A DNA stretch of 19,068 nt from the IMG/VR virus record IMGVR_UViG_2529293141_000023. The stretch is one strand, 5' to 3'. The position numbers are program-made. Shown in pieces: positions 3,601-9,600 of this stretch. The DNA is from a virus (taxonomy: Duplodnaviria; Heunggongvirae; Uroviricota; Caudoviricetes). Position 1 is the stretch's first letter. Each line of letters starts with the position of its first letter.

Positions 3601-6600
3601 TTCCAACAGAAAGCGAAAGCGGCAAAGACCAATGACGGCGACGTCGATTTCAACGTGGTGTTTGATACCGCCCCGCTAGATTTTGAGCTTGACGCCTCAG
3701 CCGGGGCTAATGTGTATGCCCAGCTTTCGAAGATTCGCCGCCAACTGGTGAAAGAGTACGGCGCATCCCGTGCCTATCTGGAGCGATTCTTCTGTTTCGC
3801 ATCCCCGGATCTGTATGACGCTTTAGCGGGTCACCCTGAAGTAACCAGCCTGATCACTAACAAGGTGGCAGAGGCGGCACGTGGTGCGCTGATCCCGGTT
3901 AACACTGCGGGCTATGACAGCTTCAGCATTGGCAACATTACTTTCATTCTGGCGGACGATGACCGCTACGAGATTGAAGAGGGTTCCGGCCTGTTCGTTC
4001 CTAAGTTCTCCAGTGCTGATCGTAACCCGTTCAAACTGGTGCGCGGCCCGGCTTCCCGTAATCAGGATATTGCCGCTAAAGGCGTGATCAGCCCGTACTA
4101 CCAGAAAGTGATGGTTGACCGTTACAACATGGTAACCATCCATCAGGAATCAAGTCATATTCCTCTGGTACTGCGTCCGTCCTACCTGCTCAACGTTAAG
4201 TTGAAGTAAGGCAGCAAGTAACAGACTTTAAGCCCTGGCATTGCTGGGGCTTTTTACCATTTGAGGTGAGTAGTGAAGATTAGCCTTAACATTCCAGCCT
4301 TGGGAGAGGTGTACACCTCAACCAATGCCGACGTGATCAACCGTTCAGCCCTGGCGCGTAAGTTGGGGATCGATCAGGTGTCTCTATGCCGCTATGAAAA
4401 ACAGTACGGCTTTGAGCGAGCGTTAAAAATTATGTTGGAGAAAAAGAAACTCCGGCAGATTATTGGGAAGTAATAAAAATTCAACGGGCTAGCCTTTATG
4501 GGCTAGCCTTTTTTATTGGTTGGGGCCTGTGGCGTAAAGGTTATATAAAGGGGAAAACAATTCCTTTCATGGAGAGGCAAAAGAACAAAAATCATTATTG
4601 TCTTTGTTGATGATAGCCTTTCGAACATTCGATCATATAATTAAACATTTCTGACAACATTCTATCTTTAGATACCTCTACTTTTTGTATTTTCTGATGA
4701 CTTCCAGATGTAAGCTGTGAGTTCAATCTTGTAGTGCGGGCATCATAGTAATTTTCACCAGGATAAAATACATAGTGAAAGATAAAACCTTCAGCTATAA
4801 AATACCATCCAATCCCATTGATACTTTCAATCTCACCAAAAGCAAAGTTCGTGAGGACCGATTTGATGACATGATCAGGAATATTGCCAGTGCTATCAAC
4901 AATCCGTAGCACTCTAATCTTGATAAAATTATCAATTTTAACCTGACTCTTATTATTAAACCTAACAATGTTATTTTTAATGCAGTGCCTCATCATCTCT
5001 CCAAAATCAGGATTCCCTACCACCGAAGAATAATGCAGGTCCATAGCATTAGAGGCTCTCCATAGTATGGATAATAGAAATAGATAAAAGCGCTTGTAAT
5101 CGAAGTTGCTAATAATAATGTGATCAGAGTTCTTTCTAATGTTGTGAGGGTTTCTTAGCAATCTGATCCCATAAGACTCGTATTGACCACTAAGAAATTG
5201 TTCGCATTCAAAACATAGCATTGGTTCTTTAGGATCTAAATTTTCTCTTCTTGGTTCCCTTCCTTTTTGCATAGAGATAACTTGACCGCCGTTTCCTTTT
5301 GCTTTGTTAAAGAAACTTCTAGGGATACTGTGTGATTCCTGAAGTTCTTTTGCTTCAAGACATAACTTACAAACACCATCCATAAAACCTCCTATATCTC
5401 ATAATTGAAATTCAAGATTTTGACTAATATTTCTCTTCATTCATTAAACTTCTGAGATGGCGTAACTCATTTGTACAGCTTCGTGCCTCTCTTACTTCGT
5501 TTTCTAACATAACTATTGAGGGTTCTGCCGATTCATCCTCAAAAATTTTTTCTGTTAGACTAACAACCCTAAATAATGTCCATCCAGAAATAATAGCAAG
5601 ATCTAGGAGTGGCTCTTCGATATAGGCATCGCCTGTTCTTTTATTCCTAAGTTCACCATGCCATCTTGGATTTCTCATGAATGAAGGCTTATCACCCAGC
5701 GGTAATAAATATCCATGAACCAAACTATTCCTATAATCAGCCAAATCAATAGCAGCGAGAGAAGCAAGATTTAAGACTGTATTACATTCATTGCTAAGTT
5801 TATCATTACCATTTCCCAAATACTCGAACCATTTATCAGATGGCAATTTTTCGGTAAAGGGCCTAACTCCTTTTACATCAATCTCTCTCAGAGTCCATAA
5901 GGCACGCTCCAAAGTTGTTTCAAACTGACCATAACAAACAACAAAAGCCCCGATCTTCATTAATCTTTCTGGGGTTAAGTGTAATGCAATGAATCGACTG
6001 ATAACTTTAAATGATTCTTCCTCGTAATTTTTAACCATAGTGCCGTCCTTTGATCCATACAGGTGCTTAACATCACATGAAATTTTTTATGATTTTACAA
6101 CTAACTAGGTCACAGACAATAGCATCCATAAAGCCCCGTTAGTGGTAAGGAGACAAGTGAAGCCGTTAGGCGACTGCATCAGATTGTCAGAGGGATCACA
6201 CCTTATCAGGGTGCTCGTGTACCGTTAGGAGCGTGAGCGAAGCGCTGGCAGAGCCGGATCTGTAGCTACCGGGGCATTACCACTATTCACCTGTTTACGT
6301 GGCTTATAGGGCCACACATCGGGCTTAAATGCGTGTGATCAATCTGTTTGGGAGTTGTGCCAGGTATGCGGCTTTTTGTTCGTTGTTGTGCTGTCGCGGT
6401 AAGAACGTGGAACCACCGCCAGCGTGATGATATGCTCCCTTGTACCACAGACCAATCACGCGACAGGTGCGGGCGTAGAACAATGGGTAGTTTAAGTTGT
6501 ACCTGCTTTAGCGGGGCAACGTAACTAACTGATAAATCGTAACTTCTTGATTTATCAGGAGACTGGAGCGGGCGAAGGGAACAGAACAACAAGCCATGCC

Positions 6601-9600
6601 ACCAGTAATAAAGCCATTTCCACATGTTCTAAAATCAATCCTATACACATTTCTATACACATTTAGCAGGCGCTTGATGACTTACTCAGGCAAATATTTA
6701 CCGGAATTTTTCCGGTTATCCCCTATGAAGCTGGTGGGCTTTACCTGTTTTTATCCGACTGTGTCACATAACTTTTGTTCCGGCATGATAAAATCGTCTG
6801 GTCATGTCCATTACTCATTGTTGACCTCTTGTTGTGTTTCTTTGGTGGCATGCCGTAGTGTTATCGCACTACGGTTTTTTTTCCCTCAAACTGAAATGGA
6901 TTTTTTCCGGTAATCACACTTCCGCCTGATTCATCTGTGTACCCAATGTGTGGTAAGCACCTCATACAGCAAACGAGGCAATCGGTATTCTGCTCCTTCA
7001 TGGCGTTTTTAGCGCTGTGGTGAATAACAGAATGACGGAACGATAGCCTATGGATACTCACGACAAGATACCACCAGCATATTCATACTCCCCGCAACCA
7101 GTACCGGAAGCCTGGAAAATGCGATTCAGCGCTAACAGTGCGTGGTTCTTCACCGATGATTTAACCGTGGTTGATGCCTGGCTAAAGGCCCACAGCGACG
7201 GCGTGGAGGTTGTACCGCTGTTTTGTGGCTCTGACAGTGACGGTAAGCGGGATACCGCATTTGAGGAGGTGTGCGCGGCTCTTGCCCGTATGCTGCATAT
7301 GCACCGCTTGTTACTTGAGAAAACAAGATACCAGGAACATGTTACTGACCCTGAATGTCTGCGGGAGCTCCACGAAGCCCCAATACAGGCGCTAAATATT
7401 CTGGTTAAACACAAACTGTCCTGACCGTGTCATGGAGGCCTGCACTTTTTGTCCAGGTCTCCCGATTCCCATCCGGTCCTCCGCCCATCGAATTTTAAGC
7501 CGCCTGTAAGCCTGTATGACGTTTTCCGGTGAATGCTCGCCCCGATAGTGAACATTGCGCCAGAGTGCGATTTATCCCCATTGCTGTGGATGTTTGAGCG
7601 TGAGCGCTGGTAACTGGTTAATGAGGTCGTGCCTGTGCGCTTGCACTTAACGGGCAACCGTGGGAGATGTGGGGGGATTTTACGAAATTTTCGTAATTTC
7701 CCTTTCCTTGTTCCGGCGGGGCTAATTCTCGCGATTCGCGATAATTAAGTTTAATCAATGGCCTGTAGTGATTATTTAATACATTGTGCTGGGGAGGGTT
7801 ACGAAATTTTCGTAAGCCAGCCTTCCTTGTTCCGGTGGGGGAAGGTGTGGTCATTATGACCATCCCTACGGTAATGATGATTCACGCTTTGCTAAAGGTA
7901 TTACGAAAATCATAATACCTTCTGCTGGTGGTGTCCGGCTTGTTCGTGGCTAATCACTCCCTCCATACCTGGCTTTTTCCGGTTAACCTTTAATCAGGCT
8001 GGTGGGCTTTACATGCCCTTGATCACCATAATGATGATTCAGGTATGCACCTTTTCCCCCAACGGGGTAAAAGCTCCAACTGTAACGATGTTCGTTATGG
8101 TTGCCTCGATGGTCTGAGTGGTCATTATGACCATTCAGGGTGCACCGTCCTTTGTCTCGTGGCATAATTATCAGGCGATTACGTTTTTCATGATTGATTG
8201 GCAAGCCGTATTTCTCCACCGCAGTTTCCTCATGACTGCGGTTTTTTTATGCGCGTTATGCCGTCACTGAATCGCGCTCAACATACCGATCCATCTCCAG
8301 CTTCACATCCAGCATCATCAACATGCCTTCAACAACCCCCTCCGCTTTGTGAAGGCGTTTACCTATACAGGTGTCAGAGCACCCATGTTTCCGTGCCAGC
8401 GCCATGAACGTCTCCCCCAACACGTAATAATCAACCAGCAAGTCATGCAGATCGCGATTGTTCCGGTAAAGACGGGCTATGCACCCGCATATCACCATCG
8501 CATCATCGTCACAGCACTGTGAGCGTGATGTTATCTTTGCCGGAATAATCCCCTTAAATCCTGCGGCAACGGATGACCAGGTCACATTCTCGCGATTATT
8601 TGCCGCCCACGCTCCCCAGCGTTCCAGAACCTGCTGAATATCACGCATCAACAATCACCTCGTAATAGCTGTGGTTACATACCCGTAATTCAGGGATGCA
8701 CTGGATGAAAGTTAAACTACGAAAATTTCGTAGCTTGTGACTGTCTTTCAGCCAGCTTGTTAACAGTCCTCAGAAGTGAGGAATGTAGCCAGCGCAATTT
8801 TGCGTTTGCGGTCTCCTCAAATTGAGGTTTCCGAAAATATCAGTAGGTTAGGCCAAAGCTCAAAAATGAGCTTTGTAACAATATCAGCCAGTTAACGCCG
8901 TCAGCTACCCGGCTCAGAATTGAGCCGCCTTTTAATCAACAAGTTACCGCCGTAACCGCTCCGGCTTATGCCACTGGTACGGGGGCGCGTTCTGGCGTTG
9001 CTCCTGCCGTCTCCTGACCACCATATGTTCCACCGTGTACAGCGTGCTTAGAAAAAACCCCAGATTCGTGGTTTTTCTCCGGCTCTTTTTGCGACTCGTT
9101 TAAAACCAGTCACAGAGTCGCTTAAAGCTACTCAGTTCGACACCATCACGTCACATCAGCCTGATTTTCAGCGCTCACGCTGTCCGGCTGCGTGGCCTCC
9201 TGTTTGCGCTGGCGTTCTCTCTGCTCTTCAATCATGAGGATTAACTCGCGTTCCTCCTGCTCTTCAATAATCCCGTGAATTATCTCTGTTGGTGAACGTT
9301 CGGTCATCGGCCCTCCTGTGTGTCACTGTTTTGGTGTCAATGTCACTGTTACGGCGTCACCGTATTTTGCCCAAATCAGGCAAAATTGCTTACCCGAATC
9401 CGGTAAATTTGCGCGCTTTTTCGATCATCGCGTATCGGTTTCGTTTTGCGCGGCTGTTGCGTTTCGTTTTGCGCATTTTTTTGCGCACTTTTTCCGGTGG
9501 CCTTTCCCCCTGCAAGCCGCGTCATATCTGGCTTTGCTCTGTTTGTCTGTGTGATCGATTTTGTGATCGGTTTTATGATCGATTTGCGCACTTTTTTGCG

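Follow-up and report, generated by a model that had tools for sequence, protein, structure and literature searches.

Positions 6040-6913 of the viral record IMGVR_UViG_2529293141_000023, analysed here over its full length of 19,068 nucleotides (nt; hereafter the window), lie upstream of a putative defence cassette and, as comparison with related genomes shows, cover the seam where two genomic islands, inserted in tandem at the tRNA-Gly(CCC) gene glyU, meet. Judging from compensatory base changes among its relatives, the left half of this region is a widespread, uncatalogued and well-supported folded element. The joint explanation that we consider best, and to which we give somewhat better than even credence, is a tandem-island seam in which a folded module of the left island would form a structured leader, next to arm-type sites and a terminator of the right island. 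An earlier note on this DNA had described the region as one unit built around a recurrent CCGTTAG motif; the features that it listed are real, but the motif-based account is, on this comparative evidence, wrong.

A near-identity search of complete Escherichia coli genomes revealed that positions 6040-6913 are a mosaic of two mobile elements. Positions 6040-6587 are 99.6% identical to four E. coli genomes, in which they run into an intact glyU gene beside actS/xdhA; GDSC2227PM shows this left flank entering the intact tRNA-Gly. Positions 6564-6913 are 99.7% identical to a different set of genomes, those of Shiga toxin-producing E. coli (STEC), where they form the end of an island with a P4-type integrase. 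This STEC counterpart is flanked by a remnant of the ETT2 secretion system and has the genes found at 7050-14887 of the window, the common content including Q antiterminator, PerC, ProQ/FinO, SSB and DUF927. The two homology blocks overlap at 6564-6587, a segment that includes the attachment (att) core at 6564-6581 on the minus strand (TGGAGCGGGCGAAGGGAA), which corresponds to the last 18 nt of the glyU tRNA-Gly(CCC) in reverse complement (18 of the 20 nt searched). In relatives the core is repeated at both island ends, as illustrated by the 22-bp tRNA-derived repeats bounding the complete island of locus L047; the second copy lies outside the window and was seen in these relatives. The boundary is formed by the 3' end of a tRNA, and relatives possess both the second copy and an internal integrase, as befits a tRNA-derived attachment site. 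In the STEC relative (locus L172), the order is tRNA-Gly, integrase (both at 3260-4712), further genes, DUF927, further genes, and an end matching the window. From the mosaic and this tRNA/int order it follows that the right-hand island (far end at 6582-6913, P4-type integrase at about 17815-19029) was inserted between glyU and an older left island, whose tRNA-proximal end occupies 6113-6563. For annotation, the locus is occupied by two islands and not one, and the att core, the arm-type sites and the terminator are ordinary island anatomy.

The left half is more unusual. Relatives of window positions ~6115-6436, at 72-82% identity, occur in 815 of 5426 complete E. coli genomes (15%). Pattern scans collected 161 loci, from metagenomes (117), species-representative genomes (39) and IMG/VR viral contigs (5), and the true matches among the 39 species-representative loci were all Enterobacterales or obvious contaminants. 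A hand-built structure was laid on an alignment of 65 sequences (A4) and compared with slid-partner controls and 500 shuffles. In A4, 93.5% of cells were paired against 31-43% with slid partners, 15 pairs were changed on both sides against 4-7, and the covariation score was 0.174 against 0.03-0.045. None of the 500 shuffles reached the observed number of paired cells, of both-side-changed pairs or cells, or the covariation score, and the count of further pair types was matched by 64 of them. These compensatory changes show that the module folds, as a nucleic acid of 220 nt or more, into at least nine helices, including a pseudoknot; with the second domain described below it probably extends over ~345 nt.

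Domain 1 of this structured element, supported by covariation, covers 6125-6346 (listed on the plus strand), and core numbering takes window position 6125 as position 1. Its helix P1 pairs 6126-6129 with 6329-6333 and 6132-6136 with 6321-6325, and the further helices are P2 (6140-6147/6278-6285), P3 (6159-6174), P3' (6206-6209/6245-6248), P4 (6213-6223/6228-6238), P6 (6254-6259/6267-6272) and P7 (6299-6303/6311-6315). The clearest covariation was found in P2 at core pairs 17/160 (GC 33, AU 29) and 21/156 (GC 45, AU 14), and in P4 at 89/114 (GC 41, AU 21) and 91/112 (UA 36, CG 27). Three adjacent pairs covary in P6, and the P7 hairpin ranges from absent to about 40 nt among variants. A divergent extra copy shows compensatory changes both in the otherwise invariant P1 (AGCGC/GCGCU) and in P2. 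The pseudoknot P8 pairs 6194-6201 with 6333-6340 and 6180-6185 with 6341-6346, so that core positions 70-77 pair with 8 nt beginning at the last P1 base. At least six independent compensatory classes were recognised for it (GAUCACAC/GUGUGAUC, UUAGUGAGG/CUUCACUAA, GAACACAC/GUGUGUUC, GAUCAUAC/GUAUGAUC, AACCAUAC/GUAUGGUU and ACUAGCUAA/UUAGUUAGU), with a mean of 5.9 contiguous pairs between cognate strands versus 1.6 between non-cognate ones.

A covariance model built from the element alignment (R1) found exactly one match in the 19-kb window, domain 1, at 221 bits. On the true loci tested it detected one copy each, scoring 130-239 bits when full-length and lower when truncated, and it matched neither chance loci nor loci holding the right-hand island only. 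Additional divergent matches at L009 3282-3500 (minus strand, 41 bits) and L039 2051-2214 (plus strand, 32 bits), 0.7-1 kb from the main copies, indicate that the element family extends to more divergent relatives than the pattern-based sampling reached. The conserved part displays compensatory changes as well as insertions and deletions that are not multiples of three, in line with the view of the earlier note that the region is non-coding and its open reading frames (ORFs) spurious. One of these, 6287-6625 on the minus strand, is considered spurious because it spans the junction of two segments found separately in other genomes.

The structure also accounts for the CCGTTAG copies. The window contains exactly three, at 6136-6142, 6163-6169 and 6222-6228 on the plus strand, the third having been placed previously at ~6213. 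This number is ordinary for the window as a whole (1.66 expected; three or more in 48 of 200 shuffles), and by our own estimate it is their clustering within 93 nt that is unusual. Copy 1 combines the last P1 pair, a CGU junction and the first P2 pairs; copy 2 is the tip of hairpin P3 (GCC-GUUA-GGC), and copy 3 that of P4 (CC-GUUA-GG). The base following CCCCGTT is G in 63 and A in 41 of 105 variants and covaries with its P2 partner (GC 33, AU 29), while the invariance of CCCCGTT itself is uninformative because this string was fixed in the search patterns used to gather the loci. The P3 tip takes the extended form in 11 of the 105 variants and the shorter GC-GUA-GC in 64; the P4 loop is variable (UUUC 24, GUUA 20, CUUGCG 18, and one insertion of 24 nt), with its closing pairs kept. 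As a conserved motif the triple does not stand, since 55 of the 105 variants have no copy and only 6 have three. Iterons or protein-binding sites were ruled out on similar grounds, the copies being unconserved and two of them being hairpin tips.

In the ~150 nt beyond domain 1, a second domain (6385-6468 on the plus strand, left limit approximate) comprises helices D2a (6396-6400/6415-6419) and D2b (6422-6428/6455-6461). Across islands integrated at tRNA-Gly, tRNA-Leu and tRNA-Thr genes (Gly-, Leu- and Thr-type islands), D2a occurs in the compensatory forms GCGGU/ACCGC, CGUGU/ACACG, CCUGU/ACAGG and CGAG/CUCG, and D2b in the forms GCCGCU/AGCGGC, GCCACUG/CAGUGGC and GCCGUCA/UGACGGC. RNAalifold predicted 21 pairs for this domain in 17 Leu and Thr sequences, 8 of them changed on both sides. 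Immediately downstream, 6469-6492 (plus strand) resembles a degenerate 5' part of tRNA-Gly (GCGGGCGTAG..CAATGGGTAG), inverted relative to the real gene. Exact matches of at least 9 nt to positions 0-27 of their own tRNA-Gly, located 84-107 nt from the tRNA end, were found in 41 of 45 Gly-type islands; no comparable look-alike occurs at this position in Leu-, Thr- or Ala-type islands, and neither ARAGORN, run on the window, nor Rfam called a tRNA at 6469-6492. In the Gly-type islands (e.g., L016, L027 and L096) the look-alike usually consists of the D-arm GTTCAATGGTAGAACGA, extended to a 6-bp hairpin. It could be what is left of a tRNA once carried by an island, or it could mimic the tRNA functionally.

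The perfect 10-bp inverted repeat singled out by the earlier note is present at 6529-6538 (CTGATAAATC) and 6549-6558 (GATTTATCAG), separated by a 10-nt spacer, beyond domain 2 and 5 nt from the att core. Its arms show a compensatory change in a Serratia relative (CTTATAAATC..GATTTATAAG), and unrelated hairpins occupy this position in other Gly-type islands. A stem of 10 bp is reached by about 2% of shuffled 60-mers and is not rare in AT-rich sequence. The repeat 6529-6558 is possibly a local structure. The idea of a universal hairpin beside att was rejected, a simple stem statistic over all island types being not above shuffles.

None of the catalogues consulted holds the element. No Rfam 15 family matched the whole window at the gathering score, and at E-values up to 10 only three chance-level matches were obtained for 5900-7100. 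A blastn search of 50,697 phage records, sensitive down to about 65-70% identity, gave no match for the stretch, a literature text search with the invariant 13-mer of the element returned no paper, and the element was described in none of the literature found on satellites and on structured RNAs near integrases. The relatives inspected bear no RefSeq annotation at its positions.

The position of the element is equally characteristic. A complete convergent tRNA gene lies beside it in 105 loci (Gly-CCC 59, Leu-CAA 31, Thr-CGT 12 and Ala-GGC 3), the tRNA 3' end falling 372-543 nt (median 449) after the element start; loci without an adjacent tRNA have a tRNA fragment and another island, as in the window and in O26:H11, where it is a P4-like satellite. 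Conservation begins abruptly about 25 nt before the core of the element. On that left side, the genes next to the element in 123 loci represent at least 45 unrelated families and occur in both orientations, roughly 60% of them being on the minus strand, as is the window cassette, and about 35% facing the other way. Since the neighbour varies in both family and orientation, the element is not tied to the adjacent cassette, and of the small RNA or regulatory leader that the earlier note linked to that cassette, only the structured RNA and the regulatory signals are retained as probable. The same P6/P7 variants were found at Gly, Thr and Leu sites, on which ground a guide RNA for target choice was rejected as unlikely.

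Some of the cargo in this slot matches defence models, namely PDC-S32 and type IV restriction. The proteins of the window cassette (4595-6038) matched no known defence model in Pfam or PADLOC, and its low G+C content and hotspot position are only suggestive of defence.

Carrier strains of the element include E. coli B7A, O26:H11 11368, STEC 2015C-3101 and Klebsiella pneumoniae ATCC 13883, and one complete island lies at NZ_CP027221.1 4132715-4146236. A complete copy of the left island in STEC 2015C-3101 is 13.5 kb long and bounded by the 22-bp tRNA-derived repeats. Its gene order comprises a tyrosine integrase with a DUF6538 N-terminal domain, a 613-amino-acid (aa) protein resembling tape-measure proteins, lambda gpE-like capsid and gpD-like decoration genes, an O-like replication initiator, a Hin/Gin-type DNA invertase, the cargo slot and, beside att, the folded element. 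This order was found in 5 of 5 loci with at least 13 kb upstream, and the invertase in 17 of 17 loci with at least 10 kb. Int and the element are co-oriented in 9 of 10 loci. The att repeat and the int start are 88 nt apart, an interval in which a Shine-Dalgarno sequence leaves scant space for a promoter. As far as compared, the P4-like, phage-inducible chromosomal island (PICI) and capsid-forming PICI (cfPICI) gene sets do not fit, and current satellite classifications do not seem to cover an island family with such lambda-like head genes. No match to the lambda cosN or hix/gix consensus was seen when checked by eye.

Several peculiarities of individual islands may be added. In the complete island of L047, 2.4 kb (29606-31975) separate the replication initiator from the invertase; no gene is annotated there and the ORFs do not exceed 71 aa, a gap that is large for an island that small. 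In the window, the left island (1-4209) is rearranged relative to its complete relatives: the gpD/gpE-like head genes are on the plus strand, i.e., the opposite strand, an IS3-family transposase occupies 1-633, and the invertase that usually precedes the cargo slot is absent. One element variant was found 100% identical in 171 PLSDB plasmids and at L003 6012-6215, often truncated at 177 or 193 nt. The plasmids come from Klebsiella, Escherichia, Salmonella, Citrobacter, Providencia, Morganella and others, and these copies are apparently passengers in regions that are mosaics rich in insertion sequences.

The layout of the left island suggests what the folded module might do. In the excised circle, the order would be the element, about 230 nt, the attP core, 88 nt and int; for the module, the way to the core is put at about 450 nt. 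Because the circle puts the module upstream of int in the same orientation, we take the module to be probably an RNA and propose that it acts as a structured leader or regulator placed upstream of attP and int and joined to int only after excision. Such joining would couple integrase expression to the circular state, and it is only in this predicted circular form that the downstream gene is constant (int), whereas the neighbour varies when the island is integrated. A function as leader or regulator of int restricted to the circle is a tentative proposal, to which we give decidedly less than even credence. No clear case of terminator/antiterminator or Shine-Dalgarno-sequestering pairing was identified in the element.

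Several observations weigh against a plus-strand leader of this kind. Element variants track neither the tRNA target nor the integrase type and have been exchanged among islands with different targets, and intact copies persist in truncated islands or on plasmids, none of which would be predicted for a pure int leader. Across the family, there is no enrichment of -35 sequences before the conserved block and no convincing -10 or terminator framing it, apart from weak hairpin-plus-U signals after domain 1; folded as single sequences, the elements do no better than shuffles. The strand evidence is divided, and wobble counts, loop motifs, and alignment and folding energies pick neither strand. The plus strand is indicated by the G.U pairs that are invariant in P4, by the tandem G.A of P3 and by folding energies, which are lower for this strand in 87 of 107 sequences. 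The minus strand is indicated by three covarying pairs with A.C mismatches that its complement would turn into G.U. The alignment energies are near equal (-80.0 versus -79.5).

These indications leave some room for an RNA transcribed from the minus strand, in the same direction as the tRNA gene and on toward the cargo slot. It would start at a promoter near att or, through read-through, at that of the tRNA, and would serve as a leader or processing module for the cargo. The A.C appositions of the plus strand that would become G.U concern core pairs 90/113 (56 sequences), 177/189 (44) and 75/211 (13), GAAA/GCAA tetraloops would cap P4 in about 40% of variants, and the majority of neighbour genes, at roughly 60% and with the window cassette among them, are read in that direction. 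However, the invariant middle of P4 would become three A.C mismatches and the tandem G.A of P3 would become U.C/C.U, the plus strand folds 5.3 kcal/mol lower on average, about 35% of neighbour genes face the other way, neither strand shows a U run behind the hairpin that follows the tRNA, and no promoter was found. We regard a minus-strand RNA as unlikely, if worth keeping in mind.

The only promoter-like site found in 5950-7100 is a sigma-70-like consensus match on the minus strand (TTGTCT-16-TAAAAT, 6119-6092), which points at the cassette gene starting at 6038. Its -35 sits in the conserved left edge of the element, where TTG is kept across the family and the edge reads TTGTC(T/C) on the minus strand. 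Before minus-strand neighbour genes, the -10 score at the right spacing is slightly higher than in the control (3.40 versus 2.97). The conserved left edge may contribute the -35 to a hybrid promoter that reads minus-strand cargo, and a weak link to the cassette would remain in this form.

The roughly even wobble evidence between strands could also mean that the functional form is folded single-stranded DNA, either a priming or transfer signal or a recombination site like integron attC or the CTX phage attP. The position of the element beside a recombination site and a serine invertase gene agrees with this, as does an unremarkable single-strand folding energy. Yet at least nine helices, a pseudoknot and long invariant unpaired runs are typical of functional RNAs, and the folded-DNA sites known to us are single forked hairpins. 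Moreover, the islands yielded no relaxase, HUH enzyme or integron integrase, and their theta-type O-like initiator and head proteins make double-stranded DNA transfer more likely. Folded DNA thus appears improbable. A long single-stranded hairpin promoter (Frpo-like) was a candidate of its own and was rejected, the single-strand DNA folds (z = +0.97 and +0.24) being no better than shuffles.

In its broadest form, the proposal of a circle-dependent leader would make the element the representative of a new class of large pseudoknotted non-coding RNA, obligatory in a family of undescribed, capsid-encoding, satellite-like islands of Enterobacterales. It would be either a sensor or leader switching integrase on only in the excised circle or, with the tRNA-Gly look-alike, a factor acting in trans on the host or a helper phage. 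This broader suggestion is speculative, and we would sooner doubt it than rely on it.

The right-hand side of the seam carries signals of another kind. The tandem repeat reported in the earlier note, CTATACACATTT in two copies (6641-6652 and 6653-6664, plus strand), lies on what would be the distal attP arm of the right-hand island, and a third, CTATACAC-type copy at 19026-19037 (minus strand) overlaps an ATG (about 19027-19029) matching the int start annotated in the STEC relative. That relative has three further copies in the interval from tRNA-Gly to int, including one over the int ATG, giving 4 matches where 0.58 are expected. One relative retains the repeats in identical form with flanking sequence of only about 80% identity. 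The window integrase has Phage_integrase and Arm-DNA-bind_3 domains (E = 1e-25). The occurrence of the repeats on both attP arms and the arm-binding domain support, by comparison, their prediction as arm-type sites for the right-hand island integrase. Like the attP arms of P4-family tyrosine integrases that insert at tRNA 3' ends, this arrangement has a tRNA-derived core, an arm-binding domain and short repeats on both arms, with one over the int start; it differs in that the repeat sequence CTATACAC is peculiar to the right-hand island family and its binding is a prediction. The arrangement agrees with the autoregulatory layout that Pierson and Kahn are said to have described for P4 in 1987.

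The int-proximal attP arm has a second family of repeats besides CTATACAC: in L172 (3335-3440, in the interval from tRNA-Gly to int), (A/C/G)TCTAC(C/A/T) occurs about eight times at a spacing of roughly 10 nt. The palindrome ACCGGAATTTTTCCGGT at 6700-6716 and the related TTTTCCGGTAATC at 6901-6913, read from the sequence, are both kept in an O157 island of the same family as the right-hand one and may form the operator of an island regulator. Deeper in the window, a 415-aa ORF (15756-17003, minus strand) may be a frameshifted or chimeric reading, its Rha-like N-terminus giving way to low-complexity sequence, and 9000-9750 has a strong T-over-A skew (AT skew to -0.41) with low-complexity ORFs only.

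About 270 nt inside the right island stands an intrinsic-terminator-like hairpin on the plus strand (6852-6883), with 10 pairs (5 G-C) at 6852-6875 and a run of 8 T to 6883, a slight correction of the coordinates given before. O157 islands of the same family share 89% of its sequence and show one stem change, from U-A to U.G on the plus strand, that keeps the stem. It likely blocks transcription entering from outside, which here would include plus-strand transcripts from the left island. In this genome, a plus-strand transcript from near 6125 would indeed meet no strong terminator before 6852-6883, and the cassette promoter-like site overlaps the left edge of the conserved block, as might be expected had the earlier note been right in predicting a single plus-strand RNA of 200-800 nt that contains the CCGTTAG copies, ends near 6882 and regulates the cassette. 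But the two halves of such an RNA are in different islands and occur apart in other genomes, the triple motif is restricted to the 6 variants mentioned, the neighbouring gene is unrelated in most loci, and the terminator is kept in islands devoid of the left element. Because att separates the parts, a single native transcript over ~6100-6882 would at best be a by-product of tandem insertion, and the rightward transcript as originally conceived is very improbable.

RNA folds as large and complex as this are rare, and their functions are usually notable, riboswitches, ribozymes, guide RNAs and protein scaffolds being examples. Here, an uncatalogued candidate occurs across the Enterobacterales and in 15% of complete E. 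coli genomes; it borders a cargo slot of rapid turnover and adjoins an integration site. The element marks both a family of ~13-kb satellite-like islands and the border of their cargo slot, and R1 together with the conserved flanks provides a handle for finding these islands and their cargo, candidate defence genes included.

Among known systems, lambda sib consists of one RNase III hairpin, which lies 3' of int, across attP, destabilises int mRNA and acts only when the phage is non-integrated. In both cases a structured element and int flank attP, linked in the circle and apart when integrated. The present element differs by its size (at least 220 nt), its multi-helix and pseudoknotted fold and a position that would be 5' of int, where its regulatory role is a proposal. 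The bridge RNA of IS110 and the omega RNAs of TnpB/IscB are also folded modules (150-350 nt) at the end of a mobile element, next to a recombination site and oriented toward the flank. However, no IS110-type recombinase, TnpB or IscB was found in the present islands, the element stands about 100 nt away from the att core, and a guide role is unlikely because the variable loops do not track the tRNA target. With respect to cargo, the closest likeness is with the cargo and defence hotspots that P2 phages and P4 satellites possess (Rousset et al. 2022, as cited within PMC10121019). Both have one high-turnover slot between conserved flanks of a small, helper-dependent-looking element, but the flanks of the P2 and P4 slots are protein genes, whereas those of the present slot are an invertase gene on the left and, on the right, the folded element.

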